From Escherichia coli (GTDB lineage Bacteria > Pseudomonadota > Gammaproteobacteria > Enterobacterales > Enterobacteriaceae): DNA of 64,000 bases. Below are positions 57,614-64,000 of the stretch, piece after piece. The DNA lies in NCBI RefSeq assembly GCF_003334335.1, contig NZ_QOWQ01000005.1. The stretch is one strand, 5' to 3'. Every line of letters starts with the position of its first letter. Within the stretch, counting starts at the first letter, position 1. The notes under the pieces were generated by a model, which did no database searches, had not been told where the DNA came from, and was given only the letters and a program-made list of their open reading frames with translations. The position numbers were made by a program, and so were the translations under genes.

Positions 57614-57829
57614 AGATATTTTCTTACGGCGTTCACCTGATGTGATCTACAGCATGTTATGCCTTCGTCATACAATCGTTATGTAACTAAGCAACTCATC
57701 ACCTCTAAAAATTATTCTTTGGTGTTATGGCGAGAATCGCGAACCCGGATTATTGTCAAAATATCAGCCTGACTCCCTTCTGGCTGCCAGCCCAAAAACA
57801 ACACTGATAAACGTGAATCCGAGGCAGAT

Positions 57830-58192
57830 ATGTTTCTAAACTATTTCGCGTTGGGAGTGCTGATCTTCGTCTTTCTGGTGATTTTTTATGGAATCATCGC
57901 GATACATGACATCCCTTATCTGATTGCCAAAAAGCGCAACCATCCCCATGCCGACGCTATTCATACGGCGGGCTGGGTGAGCCTGTTTACTCTGCATGTT
58001 ATCTGGCCGTTTCTGTGGATCTGGGCGACGCTCTATCAACCGGAGCGTGGCTGGGGTATGCAGTCACATGTTGCGTCGCAGGAGAAAGCGACTGACCCGG
58101 AAATCGCCGCACTTTCTGACCGAATTTCCCGGCTGGAGCATCAACTCGCCGCCGAGAAAAAGACTGACTATTCCACGTTCCCGGAGATCTAA
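57830..58192 (+). CDS. yibI: Small inner-membrane protein (DUF3302)
   Basis: 120-aa ORF with two predicted TM helices; stop is 2 nt before the yibH start. Confidence 0.75.
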
Positions 58193-58194
58193 TT

Positions 58195-59331
58195 ATGGAT
58201 CTATTGATTGTTTTAACTTACGTGGCGCTGGCGTGGGCGGTCTTTAAAATCTTCCGCATTCCGGTAAATCAGTGGACGCTGGCGACGGCGGCGCTGGGAG
58301 GCGTGTTTCTGGTGAGTGGTTTGATTTTGTTGATGAACTACAACCACCCTTACACTTTTACCGCGCAAAAGGCAGTGATAGCGATCCCTATCACGCCACA
58401 GGTGACGGGAATTGTTACTGAAGTCACTGACAAGAATAATCAGCTTATTCAAAAGGGCGAGGTGCTTTTTAAGCTCGACCCGGTTCGTTACCAGGCGCGA
58501 GTTGACAGACTTCAGGCTGACCTGATGACGGCGACGCATAATATAAAGACGCTGCGTGCGCAGCTCACTGAAGCGCAGGCCAACACCACCCAGGTTTCAG
58601 CGGAGCGCGACCGTCTGTTTAAAAATTATCAACGTTACTTGAAAGGCAGCCAGGCGGCGGTGAATCCGTTCTCGGAACGTGACATCGACGATGCGCGGCA
58701 AAATTTCCTCGCGCAGGATGCGCTGGTGAAAGGCTCGGTGGCGGAGCAGGCGCAGATCCAGAGCCAGCTCGACAGTATGGTTAACGGCGAGCAATCGCAG
58801 ATTGTGAGCTTAAGAGCGCAACTTACTGAAGCAAAATATAACCTTGAGCAGACTGTCATTCGCGCGCCGAGCAATGGCTACGTTACTCAGGTACTGATCC
58901 GCCCAGGTACATACGCAGCTGCCTTGCCGCTGCGTCCGGTGATGGTCTTCATCCCCGAGCAAAAACGGCAAATTGTCGCCCAATTTCGGCAAAACTCGCT
59001 GTTACGTCTGAAACCCGGCGATGATGCGGAAGTGGTGTTTAACGCGCTACCTGGGCAGGTGTTTCACGGCAAACTGACTAGTATTTTACCTGTCGTGCCA
59101 GGCGGTTCTTATCAGGCGCAGGGGGTATTGCAATCATTAACGGTCGTGCCCGGCACGGACGGTGTGCTGGGAACCATTGAACTGGACCCTAACGATGATA
59201 TCGATGCCTTACCCGACGGCATCTACGCCCAGGTGGCGGTTTACTCCGACCATTTCAGCCATGTTTCGGTGATGCGGAAAGTGCTGCTAAGAATGACCAG
59301 CTGGATGCATTATCTTTATTTGGATCATTGA
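58195..59331 (+). CDS. yibH: HlyD-family periplasmic adaptor protein
   Basis: 378-aa ORF with N-terminal TM anchor, coiled-coil and beta-barrel regions typical of membrane-fusion proteins. Confidence 0.8.
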
Positions 59332-59790
59332 GGGGGAGGGGGGAGATTATGGAACTTTGCTCCTTGTAAGGACTAATTATTTTTGCATATTACTTCATTA
59401 GCTGCGATGATTTTTCTTTAATATTCATTATGTTAATAAGTTCTGGATGAGTGTGCTCTCATTGGATTTTTTATCCGTCTTGTTCTGCCGCAGGATGAGA
59501 CTATACATCGTCGAGATCGCAATGATGATATGAGTTGTTCCTCCTGCGACGGCTCTAATCAAAAAAGAGCAGGAGTGCTTTTCCATCTATTGCGATGATG
59601 GCTTTATTATCTGAAGGATGACAGTCACATTTAAAAAATATTTAATCTATAGATCACAATGTAGGGTCATGGAATATATGTATACAACTATTTTCTTCTT
59701 CACTTTTAATTATCGTATTCATTATAAAACTAAGTTAAAAAAACTCCTGGAGAGTGAGTTATTAATATATTTTTAAATAAAATTAAGTTA

Positions 59791-60228
59791 TCATTCATCG
59801 ATGCACTTTATAGAATCATCAATGGCCATAATAGTACTATTAACTCTCAATTTTATATTTTTATCATCACTACAAATATTAACTGAATTTATATCAATGA
59901 TTTTTTTATTCTTATCTTTTATTTTATTTACTGTTTCAATGCAATCAGCGGCAAGTTGGAGTGGATTTAGATTTTTCAGATATGGTCTTATGATCTTTCC
60001 CTTACTTAATAAATAGCATGTATAGGATTCGGAAAGTCCAGCATCTATTTTGTACCTCATTATATTAGATAAGGATGTGAGAAATTCCTTGTTATCATTC
60101 GCAGCCATATATGCCAGTCCGAGTTCAGCCTCTGCGGCCTTACAGGCAAAATAGCTTAGTGAACACGCTTTTCGTCCCTCTTTAGTACTGGCTGATATTA
60201 GTGCCCATAATATTGCTTTGTCTGCCAA
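59791..60228 (-). CDS. Hypothetical protein; candidate immunity protein of the degenerate third Rhs module
   Basis: 145-aa AT-rich ORF immediately downstream (minus strand) of a degraded Rhs C-terminal remnant; role inferred from position only. Confidence 0.4.
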   Translation of the reverse strand: MADKAILWALISASTKEGRKACSLSYFACKAAEAELGLAYMAANDNKEFLTSLSNIMRYKIDAGLSESYTCYLLSKGKIIRPYLKNLNPLQLAADCIETVNKIKDKNKKIIDINSVNICSDDKNIKLRVNSTIMAIDDSIKCIDE

Positions 60229-60316
60229 ATCTAACTCTCTCTGAAATTGTCTTGCAGTAACTGCACTCGCAGAAATAGAGAAAAAAATACAATTGTTAAT
60301 AACCTTGCCATATTTT

Positions 60317-60900
60317 TTAGTCCGTAACTGTTAATGTGCTATCTGGCTCTGAAAATATTAACTCATTTAATTTTTGCATGTCATTAGATAAACCAGTTAT
60401 ACAACCCTCGGAACAGAATCGAGGTCCTAAAGACGGACCAAAAGCGTTTAAACAACTATGTATTGAAAATCCATTGCGATTATAAGTTCCTGTATTAACT
60501 GACGGTACTAATCGTATGCCGTCAGGTTTTCTATTGCTTGCTCCCGGGTCATTAACATTCCAACTCCATAGGCCTTGAGGTATTGGCCATCTATTTATAA
60601 ATGTGTACAACGGGGATTATTTTTACATTGCATATTATTACCAGAAGCGACTGGAATACTAAGCACATCATAAAAATTATCATCACATGGTATATCTGAA
60701 ACACACGAAAGCATACCTAAAGTTATGCTGTATAAACAGGTGGCTAATCCCAAGGGGATCGATTCCAGAAATCGGGTTCAACGGATACTGATAAAAATTC
60801 CACCTACCTTCCAGCCCAATCGGAGCCTGAGTGTTATACCGCCCCTGCTGCGGTTAATGTTACCGATAATAGTTATAGTACAGCCCTGATTCATCATCAT
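60317..60900 (-). pseudogene. Degenerate orphan Rhs C-terminal (toxin-tip) remnant
   Basis: About 140 bp (60764-60900) of degraded similarity to the Rhs core 3' repeat, followed by AT-rich sequence with only a 97-aa ORF (60317..60610) and no continuous frame. Confidence 0.45.
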
Positions 60901-60934
60901 ACTACTGCTGCGGCAGTCTGATGAACTATTGCTT

Positions 60935-61396
60935 TTACGGATTCTCCTTATTCTTCCTTCTATCCATTCGCTTTAGCTTTTTGAGCTCTTGAAGTTTGCT
61001 CTTTGCATCAATATTACCGTTATTTACAGCGAATTCCATCCAATAAATAGCTCTATTCAAATTATAATATTCTGATAATGTTGGATTTGTATCTGATAAA
61101 AAGACCCCATAATTAAACTGCGCTGTAACATTCCCCTGAGATGCTGATCTTTCCAAGAATCGCAATTGTTTGTAAATGTTATTTTTAGTAAAGCAGTAAT
61201 ATTGATATAGTCGAAATGATGCCTCTGAATCACCATGTTGTGATTTATACTTCAGTTTCATCAACTTTTCTTCACTTAAATCATAGGTCATTGCTGTAGA
61301 CCCCATCATACTTTCGTTTTGTTTTATTTTCACATCAGCACCATGCAATTGACAAATAAAAGAGAAATAAAAAAATAGTAACAAGCATGCTTTCAT
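60935..61396 (-). CDS. yibG: Sel1-repeat protein; candidate immunity for the orphan Rhs toxin tip
   Basis: 153-aa ORF with signal-like N-terminus and Sel1/TPR-like repeats; immediately follows the orphan Rhs tip. Confidence 0.6.
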   Translation of the reverse strand: MKACLLLFFYFSFICQLHGADVKIKQNESMMGSTAMTYDLSEEKLMKLKYKSQHGDSEASFRLYQYYCFTKNNIYKQLRFLERSASQGNVTAQFNYGVFLSDTNPTLSEYYNLNRAIYWMEFAVNNGNIDAKSKLQELKKLKRMDRRKNKENP

Positions 61397-61407
61397 ACAT
61401 CTACAAC

Positions 61408-62352
61408 CTATCTTATATCACTGGGTTTTTCTGGCGTACCTTGCATATTAGAAATGGGGTGCCCAGATGGCCCATATGTTATCCAATTACCAAGGTCTTT
61501 TGTTGTTATAGCCATTAGATCCTTATTTGAATTAAGGTTCGTTGGTGCTGTTAGCACTGTATCCATTTTTAACTTACCATTAGTTCCTCGCCCCCACCAC
61601 GTCCATAGCGTGTCAGGTCCTATTACATTTGTATGTAACTCTTTAGCTAATTGGCTAGCAAATGAATTTTGTCCTTTACCTGTATTACAAGAAAATAACC
61701 AAACTGTCATCCCATCTTTATAATTCCCATCAAATTTAATTAGATATGCTAGATCTTTAGCTGTCATGATACTGCGCGTTGCGGATTCAATAGATGTGGG
61801 GGAACCATGCCCCCCGATTGTGAAAACGCCTGGGATATTAATCTCATCAGCTACAGAATGGATAAGATCACTTTCGGGGTATAAATTTATATCAACCAAA
61901 CCTTGCGGATCTACATTTATGACCGGATTCAACGGATACTGATAAAAATTCCATCCCCCCTTCAGTCCAATCGGATCCTGAGTGATATACCGCCCCAGCA
62001 GCGGGTCATAATAGCGGTGGCGGTTGTAATACAGGCCGGACTCCTCATCATACTGCTGACCCGGCAGGCGAATGAGCTGCTGCAGATGATGCGGGTTCTC
62101 ATCACTCAGCAGGTTGCCCCATTCATCATATTCTGCGCACCACGCTGTTGCCCCTTCCGTGCTGATGAGCGCCAGCGGCAGGCCGCGATGGTCGCAGTGG
62201 TACAGGTGGATTTTTCGCGCCGGCGTGTACACCGGGTCCATCTGGTTTTGCATCTGCTCCACGGTCAGGCCGCACGATGCCAGCCAGCGGCGGCTTTCCT
62301 CACTCACCCGGTCAGCCAGGATTTCACTTTCCAGCCGGTCGAGCATCTGCAC
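61408..62352 (-). CDS. yibJ: Orphan Rhs C-terminal fragment (core 3' end plus distinct toxin domain)
   Basis: 314-aa ORF; N-terminal part matches the Rhs core end ([26 protein letters not shown]...[16 protein letters not shown]) and is followed by a divergent AT-rich C-terminal domain. Confidence 0.65.
61924..62250. repeat. Rhs core 3'-end repeat, copy in the orphan module
   Basis: About 95 percent identical over about 330 bp to 63675..64000. Confidence 0.75.
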
Positions 62353-62393
62353 CGTGCCGGCGGGAATCCCCCACTGTGCATAGGCAACTCACG

Positions 62394-63236
62394 CTATGAA
62401 CGCTTCAGCTTATCAATAGCGGAAGTTATAATTTCATTGTCATCAAACTTGTACAACATAGTATCTAAAACAGGAAGTAGCGTTTTATCACCTAATTCAC
62501 CCGCAGCTTCAATGATATCATCATAAACAGTATTTTTTTTTAACTCATCGCATAAAACAGATAAAACCCTTTTATCTTTTCTGTAGGAAAGTCCGATTAT
62601 TGCTTCAATACGGACTTCCTCATTTTTATCCTGAAGCATCTCCACAAAACAATCCCTAATATCACTATTATCATATTTATTGATATTTATTGCAAATGCG
62701 GCCCAGTTTCTGACATCTCCATTTGGATCTTTTAACAGATTAATCAATAGTGGAATTGTTGCTTTATCATTGATAACAGAAATAGCAAATGCTGTAGCAC
62801 GTCTGACATTAGTCGATTTATCAAAAGCAGTAATTTGAGATTGTTCTACTATTTTAGGTGAATAAATTGGGTTTTTCTTGCATCGCTGAGCCGTTGACTC
62901 GATTGCCGTAGCTCGAACGCAAGCGCTCTTATCATTCAATGCCATATTGTTCAAAATATTAAAAACATTATCTTCGCATTTTTTGCAAATTTTTATTTGC
63001 CCGAGTATAAATGCTCCGATATCTCTACGGATATAATTTTTATCAGAGCAGAACTCAATTGCCAATCTAACAGCGTCTTGCCCACCTCTTAACTGTAATA
63101 CTCTGGCAGATGAAATCCTTTTCAAGGAATTGTGATCATCAAGTAAGCGAAATAATTCATCATCATTTAGTTTCTTACATTGATTATATAAACCATACTC
63201 TTTACTTGCCTTTCTTTTCTGGTATGTATTTGACAT
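62394..63236 (-). CDS. yibA: HEAT-repeat protein; candidate immunity for the main Rhs C-terminal toxin
   Basis: ORF 62394..63251 trimmed to MSNTYQKRK (280 aa); AT-rich; repeated helical units; immediately downstream of the Rhs tip. Confidence 0.65.
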   Translation of the reverse strand: MSNTYQKRKASKEYGLYNQCKKLNDDELFRLLDDHNSLKRISSARVLQLRGGQDAVRLAIEFCSDKNYIRRDIGAFILGQIKICKKCEDNVFNILNNMALNDKSACVRATAIESTAQRCKKNPIYSPKIVEQSQITAFDKSTNVRRATAFAISVINDKATIPLLINLLKDPNGDVRNWAAFAININKYDNSDIRDCFVEMLQDKNEEVRIEAIIGLSYRKDKRVLSVLCDELKKNTVYDDIIEAAGELGDKTLLPVLDTMLYKFDDNEIITSAIDKLKRS

Positions 63237-63256
63237 TGCAGGAACCTCCACAAGGG

Positions 63257-64000
63257 CTATCTTTTTTTATCGTTTGACTGTCTGGAGTGACGACAATTCC
63301 AGGCTTTCTGTGTGCTTTTTGCATCTTTAGCACTAATATCACCACAATCAATTAGTTCCTGAAGTACGTCACATCTGTCGGGTTTTTTCCCATCACTCCA
63401 GAATCTGTCATTTATTATGTCATTGACACGATCAGTTATCCCTGTGTCTGCAACATTTCCACGAGAAGCTATCATTGTTATATCTAATGCTAGTCCCGGA
63501 TTATTCAATATTAGAGAGTCAAATATTCTTTGTGATGCTGTATCGTTCCACCATTTTGTCAATGCTTTTGCAGCATTATCATCTGCTTGCTGCTGTGCAG
63601 GGCTTTTGGGCCATGGAATTGGCAAGGGGAATGGTCTAGGAAAAACTTCTAACCCCAGAGGATCTGTATTCGTAACTGGATTCAACGGATACTGATAAAA
63701 ATTCCATCCCCCCTTCAGCCCAATCGGATCCTGAGTGATATACCGCCCCTGCAGCGGGTCATAATAGCGGTGGCGGTTGTAATACAGGCCGGACTCCTCA
63801 TCATACTGCTGCCCCGGCAGGCGGATAAGCTGCTGCAGCTGATGCGGGTTCTCTTCATTCAGCAGGTTACCCCATTCATCGTATTCTGCGTACCACGCTG
63901 TTGTCCCTTCCGTGCTGATAAGGGCCAGCGGCAGGCCGCGATGGTCGCAGTGGTACAGGTGGATTTTTCGCGCCGGCGTGTACACCGGGTCCATCTGGTT
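63257..64000 (-). CDS. rhsA: Rhs protein, 3' end only (core end with DPxGL motif plus C-terminal toxin domain); continues past the window edge
   Basis: GC-rich core-end sequence ...[20 protein letters not shown]...DPLGL followed by about 125 aa of AT-rich variable C-terminus; the symbol follows recalled K-12 synteny. Confidence 0.7.
63675..64000. repeat. Rhs core 3'-end repeat, copy in the main gene
   Basis: Near-identical direct repeat of 61924..62250. Confidence 0.75.

Follow-up and report, generated by a model that had tools for sequence, protein, structure and literature searches.

The 64,000-nucleotide stretch of Escherichia coli DNA analysed here, hereafter the window, carries two adjacent forward-strand genes, yibI and yibH, whose nearest neighbours are the divergent mtlA-mtlD-mtlR genes and the rhsA island (Table 1). 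The yibI stop codon TAA (58190–58192) is followed by TT and the yibH start codon ATG (58195), a stop-to-start gap of 2 nt, and the GGAG sequence at 58183–58186 lies inside the 3′ end of yibI, 8 nt upstream of the yibH ATG; the two genes are translationally coupled. Because stop-to-start spacings of −1 to +9 nt are kept in 85 of 89 DUF3302/MFP pairs from other genomes, the tight spacing is not a matter of chance. The preliminary description of this DNA had identified YibI as a DUF3302 protein with two transmembrane (TM) helices and YibH as a HlyD-family adaptor, coupled across a 2-nt stop-to-start gap. Pfam agrees on both identities and NCBIfam on that of YibH, and the junction reads TAA-TT-ATG at exactly these coordinates.

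Table 1 Features of the yibI–yibH locus in window coordinates
Feature	Position	Strand	Description	Basis
Candidate yibIH promoter	57646..57676	+	TCTACA-N19-TACAAT, 153 nt upstream of yibI ATG	−35/−10-like
Shine–Dalgarno of yibI	57821..57824	+	GAGG, ATG 5 nt on	read from sequence
yibI CDS	57830..58192	+	120 aa, DUF3302 inner-membrane protein	ORF; PF11742; RefSeq E. coli annotation
YibI TM helix 1	57839..57904	+	residues 4–25	hydropathy, family alignment
YibI inter-helix loop	57905..57967	+	residues 26–46, His/Asp-rich	family conservation
YibI TM helix 2	57968..58036	+	residues 47–69, Trp-rich	family alignment
YibI C-terminal tail	58091..58159	+	about residues 88–110, variable, heptad-like helix	family alignment
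Coupling junction yibI/yibH	58183..58197	+	GGAG Shine–Dalgarno, TAA, TT, ATG	sequence
yibH CDS	58195..59331	+	378 aa, EmrA-type periplasmic adaptor, HlyD/MFP	ORF, Pfam, NCBIfam, profile, AF2, Foldseek
YibH N-terminal membrane hairpin	58198..58353	+	ends in MNYNHPY motif	hydropathy, AF2
YibH α-helical hairpin	58483..58848	+	residues 97–218	AF2 H97–152, H161–218; EmrA alignment
YibH lipoyl second half and β-barrel	58849..59244	+	residues 219–350	AF2 strands, HlyD_D23/HlyD_3, EmrA alignment
YibH C-terminal amphipathic helix	59257..59316	+	residues 355–374, conserved	AF2 H355–374
Start of variable rhsA island, outside the module	59332..64000	−	Imm57 pseudogene, Rhs C-terminal fragments, yibG, yibA	

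Architecture of YibI and YibH

The only Pfam match of YibI is to DUF3302 (PF11742, E = 3e-41), with residues 3–78 falling on model positions 1–76 of 77; DUF1656 was not matched. Hydropathy and the family alignment place two hydrophobic segments at about residues 4–25 and 47–69. Within the loop that joins them (residues 26–46), the majority of positions are 92–100% conserved among 260 non-identical family members, and mean pairwise identity is 0.66 for the loop and 0.67 for TM helix 2, compared with 0.13 for the C-terminal tail. Residues P29, A33, H38, P39, A43, W49, S51, W59, P60 and W65 are invariant in the DUF3302 alignment. In the tail, the spacing of Leu and Ile is conserved amid otherwise variable sequence, and this segment may form a coiled coil. 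The positive-inside count is ambiguous, with 2.7 Lys/Arg residues in the loop versus 2.1 in the first 15 residues of the tail. Among solved structures, DUF3302 had only weak matches in TM composition, the best of them to rhodopsin (E = 0.0017). Because an initial protein search with YibI reached only close enterobacterial relatives, the family was extended with more distant members and aligned a second time.

YibH matches the Pfam families HlyD/CusB_dom_1, HlyD_D23, Biotin_lipoyl_2 and HlyD_3. It scores above the cutoff of the generic MFP model TIGR01730 (99.9, cutoff 94.9) and below the equivalog cutoffs for EmrA/EmrK (113.5 versus 390.8), MdtN (110.9 versus 376) and AaeA (75.1 versus 400). 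The EmrA profile (8zar) matches YibH collinearly over residues 60–351 (E = 7e-23), which align with EmrA residues 58–347 nearly without gaps, the single indel spanning 2 residues. An AlphaFold2 model built on a 33-sequence alignment has a pLDDT of 84, compared with only 53 for the single-sequence version, and its best Foldseek matches are the EmrA chains of EmrAB–TolC (E = 4e-20, TM-score 0.62–0.67). YibH is an EmrA-type adaptor, consisting of a lipoyl domain, a long α-helical hairpin and a β-barrel in the canonical interleaved order, without a membrane-proximal domain. EmrA of the E. coli EmrAB–TolC complex (PDB 8zal/8zar), its closest match in both sequence and fold, has the same set of domains and is likewise anchored in the inner membrane.

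The differences from EmrA lie at the two membrane-proximal ends and at the tip of the hairpin. Whereas EmrA has a single TM anchor, as is usual for adaptors, YibH has an N-terminal hairpin of two family-conserved helices, placed at residues 2–19 and 26–50, with hydrophobic stretches at 2–20 and 29–47. At the other end, outside the region aligned with EmrA, stands an amphipathic helix with R361, L364, R366, M367, W370 and Y373 invariant, followed by a near-invariant terminal His. These two membrane-proximal elements are the best conserved parts of the protein and the α-helical hairpin the least, with mean pairwise identities of 0.61 for residues 1–52 (the N-terminal region being scored on 12 diverse members), 0.57 for residues 351–378 and 0.22 for the hairpin. 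The hairpin has the length of that of EmrA plus a 2-residue insertion at its tip, and it is shortened in a clade of 315–320 aa proteins. In other adaptors, an R-L-S type motif at the hairpin tip contacts TolC. At the tip of YibH, R147 is nearly invariant and a Ser/Thr is kept near position 160, while the Leu is out of register relative to EmrA and AcrA and the loop length varies across the family. Conserved histidines occur in both proteins, at H26, H38, H40 and H45 of YibI and H51, H356 and H378 of YibH.

Conservation and gene neighbourhood of the pair

The pair is part of the E. coli core genome, being present in 5388 of 5426 genomes, and is under strong purifying selection (dN/dS 0.02–0.07). 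Beyond E. coli, our DUF3302 sample covered Enterobacterales, Vibrio, Shewanella, Marinobacter, Aeromonas, Alcanivorax, Rhizobium and metagenomes. A YibH-type MFP gene lies directly 3′ of 137 of the 139 DUF3302 genes that have at least 700 nt of downstream sequence, several distant representatives being on contigs too short for context. The two genes stay together in otherwise unrelated neighbourhoods in Shewanella, Vibrio, Marinobacter, Aeromonas, Ferrimonas and a Pseudomonadota MAG, and are also found in Alcanivorax, Rhizobium, Serratia, Yersinia and Pantoea, so that the range takes in Gamma- and Alphaproteobacteria. Individual disruptions occur: an IS421 element is inserted within yibI in strain RM10410, and one Aeromonas veronii genome has a split MFP gene.

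The preliminary description had noted that no pump or channel gene is adjacent, and none lies anywhere in the window: the annotation of the collinear K-12-type record lists none over the approximately 57 kb upstream to yibI, and the 12 kb on each side of the pair in that record contain no annotated efflux pump or TolC-family gene. In 168 sampled loci, no RND, MFS, ABC or FUSC pump gene lies next to the pair; neighbours were mostly classed by a crude ORF caller with NCBIfam or precomputed Pfam matches, by which a transporter of very divergent sequence could have been overlooked. Unannotated neighbours at operon spacing (432 aa in locus L129; 442 and 240 aa in L101; 357 and 732 aa in L165) are not polytopic by NCBIfam and hydropathy. 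Downstream of the pair in the related loci, the only gene for a polytopic protein is that of a CPA1-type antiporter, which follows an outer-membrane-factor gene in locus L148.

A gene for a TolC/NodT-type outer-membrane factor adjoins the pair in six lineages and in both orders, either before yibI (loci L076-79 and L138) or after yibH (L104, L148, L121 and probably L117), with gaps of 11–15 nt where measured. This linkage is confined to the short-hairpin clade, where it occurs in about one-third of loci, and is not seen in the E. coli-type clade. In tripartite pumps, adaptor and pump are usually encoded side by side, and the component most often encoded elsewhere is the outer-membrane factor; a pair with an adjacent channel gene but no pump is the reverse of this pattern. 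Because the two genes remain together across many Proteobacteria without an adjacent pump, a complete system is more probable than a broken efflux operon, and gene order points to yibI–yibH as probably an intact, ancient and self-contained two-gene membrane module. The layout that the preliminary description had likened to an incomplete module is thus itself the conserved state, given the 137 of 139 linkage, the near-universal presence and purifying selection in E. coli, and the 168 loci free of a pump gene.

Expression and reported phenotypes

The candidate promoter TCTACA-N19-TACAAT has a single match in the window and none in 100 shuffles, and may drive yibIH. By genomic SELEX, the mtlA/yibI spacer binds RpoD holoenzyme and was assigned constitutive RpoD promoters, with yibIH taken as a single operon (PMC3946193). 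TCTACA-19-TACAAT is given under mtlA in that study, yet it sits on the yibI strand here, and TATACA-18-TATAAT, the element given for yibIH, is absent from the window (PMC3946193). A simple promoter/terminator scan gave no convincing promoter for yibI, missing TCTACA-N19-TACAAT too, and no terminator 3′ of yibH. In uropathogenic E. coli (UPEC), the yibI promoter region is induced by urine (PMC5404293), and YibI protein has been detected by proteomics (PMC7580552). Constitutive silence of yibIH, which the preliminary description had put forward as an outcome that would count against its reading, is contradicted by the urine induction, the proteomic detection and the RpoD binding of the spacer.

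The phenotypes reported for yibIH and its paralogue yiaWV are all screen-level, unvalidated or from other species. A UPEC ΔyibI mutant is outcompeted, with reduced adhesion and lower fitness in urine (PMC5404293). The Keio ΔyibH strain ranks within the 15 transporter knockouts most sensitive to azithromycin, together with acrB, tolQ, tolR and mdtN (PMC9405208), and evolved phages form fewer plaques on Klebsiella pneumoniae ΔyibH (PMC11796411). Deletion of yiaW raises the efficiency of Ca2+-mediated transformation, according to the passage of PMC12844161 in which this is cited. yibH has also served as a neutral integration site, with no ill effect reported (PMC5852967). No mechanistic study turned up in literature searches on yibH/yibI, on DUF3302, yiaW and yiaV, or on yibH with TolC.

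Possible functions and related systems

We tentatively suggest that DUF3302 and the membrane helices of the adaptor could make up the inner-membrane portion of a conduit linked to TolC. Support for a conduit comes from the adjacency of outer-membrane-factor genes, the EmrA-type fold, the linkage of the pair and the selection acting on it, the lack of an adjacent pump gene and the hints from phenotypes; that the membrane-proximal parts of YibH and YibI are the best conserved supports a self-contained one. YibH would oligomerise in the manner of EmrA into a periplasmic tunnel, which would dock on TolC in E. coli and, in some environmental lineages, on a dedicated NodT-type factor from the same operon. 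At the inner membrane, the two-TM DUF3302 protein and the adaptor hairpin would make up the base, in place of a pump of the MFS, RND, ABC or FUSC class. The conserved DUF3302 loop, rich in His and Asp, would join the NYNHPY motif and the C-terminal helix of YibH in a functional site at the membrane surface, possibly proton-coupled or binding an ion or ligand. Such a site would serve export, or maintenance of the barrier, starting either in the periplasm or in the outer leaflet of the inner membrane. Counting against the conduit, the pair has no ATPase or recognised proton-relay fold, the TolC-contact motif at the tip of YibH appears to be kept only in part and the outer-membrane-factor linkage was not seen in the E. 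coli-type clade. We know of no transporter made of a two-TM protein and adaptor helices. The wider proposal that DUF3302, a YibH-type adaptor and a TolC/NodT channel constitute an unrecognised envelope-spanning class, in which the inner-membrane component belongs to no known transporter family but is a ring of two-TM subunits combined with the adaptor hairpin, and in which the conserved histidines of both proteins would cluster with aspartates at the membrane surface for proton coupling or ion binding, is in our judgement unlikely. To our knowledge, the described tripartite systems all need an inner-membrane transporter of MFS, RND, ABC or FUSC type; a module working without one would represent a new architecture in envelope transport and might also contribute, so far unnoticed, to the tolerance of macrolides, to susceptibility to phages and to fitness in the urinary tract.

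A somewhat unlikely alternative is that YibH serves a pump encoded elsewhere, such as an EmrB-type MFS or FUSC-family protein, with YibI as a small accessory like AaeX/YdhI or AcrZ, in which case the pair would amount to a conventional adaptor whose anchor is unusual. The collinearity and shared fold with EmrA fit this, as do the next-best NCBIfam matches of YibH, to MdtN and AaeA, and the azithromycin hypersensitivity of ΔyibH, which resembles an efflux phenotype. Gene order offers a further parallel, as in AaeX-AaeA-AaeB and YdhI-YdhJ-YdhK a small two-TM gene also directly precedes the adaptor gene. In those systems, however, the small protein belongs to DUF1656 rather than DUF3302 and a large FUSC pump gene follows the adaptor gene, the place taken after yibH by the Rhs island or yibF. 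EmrA, too, shares an operon with its MFS pump, EmrB, whereas yibH has a DUF3302 partner and no adjacent pump gene; adaptor and pump being normally co-operonic, the count of 0 in 168 loci across many orders argues against a distant pump, particularly with outer-membrane-factor genes adjacent several times. The membrane regions of both proteins are, moreover, far more conserved than a plain anchor or accessory would need. Less probable still, the pair would be a structural, sensing or envelope-integrity element, such as an anchored strut or a TolC plug, the loss of which weakens the permeability barrier. The phenotypes are barrier-like rather than substrate-specific, with azithromycin sensitivity grouping with tolQ and tolR, altered plaque formation in K. 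pneumoniae, poorer adhesion and urine fitness of UPEC ΔyibI and better transformation of ΔyiaW, and the pair contains no energy-coupling domain. These phenotypes are nonetheless all screen-derived, the known proteins of the YibH fold found by Foldseek all act in export assemblies, and a conduit is the simplest reading of the repeated association between the pair and outer-membrane-factor genes.

It is very improbable that yibIH is what is left of an efflux operon now decaying after the loss of its pump. The window without an adjacent pump or channel gene, the use of yibH as a neutral integration site and the occasional disruptions in RM10410 and A. veronii would suit decay, but the low dN/dS, the intact pair in almost every E. 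coli genome, its expression and the two-gene layout across Gamma- and Alphaproteobacteria do not. A functional tie to the Rhs toxin array, such as a part in exporting the toxins or in immunity to them, is more improbable yet. The preliminary description had remarked on the position of the pair beside this array, and the array does physically adjoin it in the window; synteny lends the link no support. The Rhs remnants, at 59.8–64 kb, are on the minus strand, opposite to yibIH. In strain UPEC129 the island is absent and yibF-selAB comes directly after yibH, the order also seen in other Enterobacteriaceae, and the K-12-type junction between yibH and the island is present in only 3723 of 5402 E. 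coli genomes, the remainder diverging exactly at the yibH stop codon, with the break at window position 59332. With the island absent from UPEC129 and other Enterobacteriaceae and its junction limited to these genomes, we see no tie to Rhs; from this synteny, the adjacency is an accidental one, arising from an island insertion between yibH and yibF that is polymorphic among strains. A PADLOC search gave no match for YibI and only coiled-coil-level matches for YibH (E about 0.005), and a PHROGs search for a phage link returned nothing meaningful.

Set beside the canonical tripartite systems AcrAB–TolC, MacAB–TolC and CusCBA, yibIH shares the adaptor fold class and, in some of its relatives, linkage to a TolC/NodT-family gene. 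In those systems an energised inner-membrane transporter is always present and the adaptors have a membrane-proximal domain, whereas here the place of the transporter is filled by nothing larger than the 120-aa two-TM protein. A further related system is the paralogous E. coli pair YiaW–YiaV, which has the same two-gene architecture and an adaptor about 76–78% identical to YibH; YiaV is listed as TCDB 8.A.1.1.4, and YiaW–YiaV is uncharacterised, as is yibIH (PMC10971958). E. coli K-12 thus holds two copies of the module, both still listed as uncharacterised. yiaWV lies about 8 kb from yibIH in the ancestral order yibIH-yibF-selAB-yiaY-aldB-yiaWV, at a separate locus with a LysR-type neighbour, yiaU, and an H-NS-associated promoter.

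The yibI–yibH pair and its chromosomal setting

The window is a chromosome segment of E. coli K-12 type in which yibI and yibH, both already annotated, meet at a TAA-TT-ATG junction, with GAGG 5 nt 5′ of the yibI start codon and GGAG 8 nt 5′ of that of yibH. Pfam assigns YibI to DUF3302 (E = 3e-41). YibH carries HlyD/CusB adaptor domains and passes a single adaptor model, the generic-level TIGR01730, falling far under the equivalog cutoffs of EmrA/EmrK, MdtN and AaeA. The collinear annotated genome has no efflux pump or TolC-family gene within 12 kb on each side or in the remaining ~45 kb upstream. These ORFs, junction, families and flanks thus bear out the facts of the preliminary description, which had reported a coupled DUF3302/adaptor pair with no pump or channel gene adjacent to it.

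Coordinates of the features discussed
Feature	Sequence	Coordinates	Strand	Remark
Promoter-like TCTACA-N19-TACAAT	window	57646-57676	+ (yibI strand)	unique match, oriented towards yibI
yibI	window	57830..58192	+	120 aa, ORF list
yibH	window	58195..59331	+	378 aa, ORF list
rhsA island	window	59332-64000	-	begins at base directly after yibH stop codon
G-rich run GAGGGGGAGGGGGGAG	window	59332-59347		straight after yibH stop, at island boundary
Two pairs in one locus	L007	10001-11502; 18657-20161
Adaptor in fragments	L086	10343-11380		108 and 159 aa
Adaptor intact	L087	10343-11380		345 aa
Lone DUF3302 gene	L122	7740-8468		242 aa as called
Four-gene operon-like string	L148	3863-7810
Reductive-dehalogenase neighbourhood	L098	4602-7679
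Reductive-dehalogenase neighbourhood	L101	1127-4212
Reductive-dehalogenase neighbourhood	L103	4637-7734
Reductive-dehalogenase neighbourhood	L139	1400-6643
Reductive-dehalogenase neighbourhood	L120	1478-2957

The pair had also been placed directly beside an Rhs toxin array. This adjacency holds in K-12-type strains, where the rhsA island separates yibH from yibF. In UPEC129, yibF-selA-selB begin 70 nt after yibH, and Citrobacter, Enterobacter, Klebsiella and relatives share the order mtlR-mtlD-mtlA, yibI-yibH, yibF-selA-selB-yiaY-aldB, yiaW-yiaV, yiaU. Of 5402 E. coli genomes, 3723 match a junction-spanning query along its whole length; in the others, the match ends at query position 153, corresponding to 59332 in the window, which is the first base past the yibH stop. 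The island is therefore a polymorphic insertion functionally unconnected to yibI–yibH, and synteny and the polymorphic junction contradict an Rhs-linked reading of the pair. Within the island are yibG (Sel1 repeat), yibA (HEAT repeat), two C-terminal fragments of Rhs and a frameshifted gene of the Imm57 family. A search 3′ of yibH gave no intrinsic terminator.

A paralogous pair, yiaW-yiaV, is found just ~8 kb from yibI-yibH in the ancestral gene order of enterobacteria, with yibF-selA-selB-yiaY-aldB between. Both pairs were seen in six sampled loci (L007, L009, L010, L012, L024 and L040), and the arrangement resembles the product of an ancient local duplication. A third, more divergent pair is present in Serratia (L064, L067, L071).

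Linkage across genomes

The co-occurrence analysis proposed in the preliminary description covered 72 loci in species-representative genomes, 20 that surround identical proteins in assemblies, and 80 from metagenomes, the last retrieved with distant members of the family as seeds. They were scanned in six frames with profiles from the alignments of YibI and YibH relatives. The scan found 178 DUF3302 genes across 168 of the loci. Downstream sequence reaches 700 nt or more for 139 of them, and in 137 of these the N-terminus of a YibH-type adaptor comes next in the same orientation, the exceptions being a true orphan (L122) and a probable frameshift (L140). For 85 of 89 pairs, the stop-to-start gap lies between −1 and +9 nt. 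Beyond the core enterics, neighbourhoods are wholly different, as seen in Shewanella, Vibrio, Marinobacter, Aeromonas, a Pseudomonadota MAG and Ferrimonas, and likewise in Serratia, Yersinia, Pantoea, Alcanivorax and Rhizobium. No RND, MFS, ABC or FUSC transporter gene is adjacent in any sampled locus, and none of the unannotated neighbours checked at operon-like spacing is a polytopic membrane protein.

By contrast with transporters, which are never adjacent, a NodT/TolC-family outer-membrane factor gene lies directly beside the pair in six lineages, 11–15 nt away where measured. It precedes yibI- and yibH-type genes in L076-79 and L138 and follows them in L104, L148, L121 and probably L117. 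All six lineages fall within a clade of short-hairpin adaptors of 317–320 aa, where about a third of the loci with adequate flanks show this linkage. In L148, the operon-like string comprises DUF3302, adaptor, NodT-type outer-membrane factor and a 401-aa CPA1-type K+/H+ antiporter-like protein, with 12–13 nt gaps around the last two; it is the only such string that contains a polytopic membrane protein.

Genes downstream of the lone, unusually long L122 ORF are on the opposite strand. The adaptor is called as split in one complete genome of Aeromonas veronii (L086) and is intact in a near-identical contig (L087); a pseudogene peculiar to that strain or an error of sequencing lies behind the split. 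A lipoprotein gene of ~222 aa recurs beside the pair, in varying orientation, in Serratia, Yersinia and Pantoea (L060, L064, L067, L069, L071). In several sediment-type metagenome contigs, reductive-dehalogenase, ~92-aa and NosR/NapH-like membrane ferredoxin genes lie a few hundred nucleotides upstream, which may reflect lineage synteny, not a functional link.

Protein anatomy and a possible conduit

DUF3302 is a modest family, with 819 cluster representatives at E ≤ 1e-3 among 1.84 billion, and no solved structure is related to it. Its members have two TM helices joined by a 20-residue loop; TM2 is Trp-rich and leads into a variable tail that contains a heptad-like helix. Mean pairwise identity is 0.66–0.67 in the loop and TM2 versus 0.13 in the tail. 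The charge bias of YibI gives no clear orientation.

The 33-member YibH family profile matches E. coli EmrA (PDB 8zar; E = 7e-23), with EmrA 58-347 collinear with YibH 60-351 except for two residues inserted at the YibH hairpin tip. An AlphaFold2 model from the same alignment (mean pLDDT 84) begins with helices at 2-19 and 26-50 and ends with one at 355-374; between them lie a lipoyl domain, a beta-barrel and a hairpin whose arms span 97-152 and 161-218. Among known structures, the model matches the EmrA chains of EmrAB-TolC best (E = 4e-20, TM-score 0.62–0.67). Conservation is highest outside the EmrA-matching part: mean pairwise identity over 12 diverse members is 0.61 in residues 1-52 (a pair of hydrophobic helices with MNYNHPY at the end) and 0.57 in 351-378, with ~0.40 in the lipoyl and barrel domains and 0.22 in the hairpin. 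Because membrane anchors are usually the least constrained part of an adaptor, this pattern points to a specific function of YibH in or at the membrane. Conserved histidines lie near the membrane surface in both proteins (YibI H26, H38, H40 and H45; YibH H51, H356 and the C-terminal H378), and both have an N-H-P motif.

The gene that accompanies an adaptor gene most closely in the usual tripartite pump is that of the transporter; the component most commonly encoded at another site is the outer-membrane factor. Here the linkage is reversed, the adaptor gene being nearly always beside DUF3302, sometimes beside an outer-membrane factor and never beside a transporter. The most economical reading, which we advance tentatively and infer stepwise from the conserved pair, is a TolC-linked conduit that dispenses with a classical pump. 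Its inner-membrane part would consist of DUF3302 and the membrane helices of the adaptor itself, the EmrA-like part of YibH would form the periplasmic tunnel, and TolC, or in some lineages a dedicated channel, would complete the assembly. The main rival, for which the EmrA likeness is what one would look to and the missing transporter linkage is the difficulty, has DUF3302 as an accessory to a pump of the EmrB or FUSC kind whose gene lies at another locus; we consider it somewhat less likely. A non-transport role in envelope integrity, set against the channel linkage and EmrA-like fold, appears improbable.

Conservation, expression and phenotypes

The preliminary description likened the pair to an incomplete efflux or secretion module, which is not what we find. 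Of 5426 complete E. coli genomes, 5388 have the 2.1-kb yibIH region at ≥80% coverage, and dN/dS against E. whittamii, Citrobacter, Enterobacter and Klebsiella orthologues is 0.02–0.07 for yibH and 0.04–0.14 for yibI. The pair is expressed: proteomics quantifies YibI (PMC7580552), urine induces a yibI promoter fragment in UPEC UTI89 (PMC5404293), and the mtlA–yibI spacer counts among the constitutive sites of the RpoD holoenzyme in a study that gives yibIH as an operon (PMC3946193). Near-universal presence, low dN/dS and expression contradict a remnant; yibI–yibH is a widely conserved, pump-less adaptor/DUF3302 pairing that is probably complete. PMC3946193 tabulates TCTACA-19-TACAAT under mtlA, yet in the window it lies on the yibI strand and faces yibI; its yibIH entry, TATACA-18-TATAAT, is absent from the window and repeats that of the next table row.

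We found no mechanistic study of yibH/yibI or yiaWV/DUF3302. YiaV is an uncharacterised membrane-fusion protein in TCDB (PMC10971958), and a y-ome review places yibH and yibI within a cluster of uncharacterised genes (PMC11551758). Phenotype hints are screen-level. UPEC ΔyibI loses in competition (competitive index 0.33) and shows reduced adhesion (PMC5404293). Keio ΔyibH is among the top 15 azithromycin-sensitive transporter knockouts, with acrB, tolQ, tolR and mdtN (PMC9405208); we read the drug as azithromycin because the text assigns Table 3 to it, despite a legend naming ornidazole. Evolved phages form fewer plaques on K. pneumoniae ΔyibH (PMC11796411), ΔyiaW raises transformation efficiency according to work cited in PMC12844161, a yiaW insertion mutant has no phagosome phenotype (PMC5495878), and yibH has served as a neutral integration site (PMC5852967). 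Strain RM10410 (NZ_CP042350.1) has naturally lost the small partner to an IS4-like IS421 inside yibI, a gene annotated there as two DUF3302 fragments.
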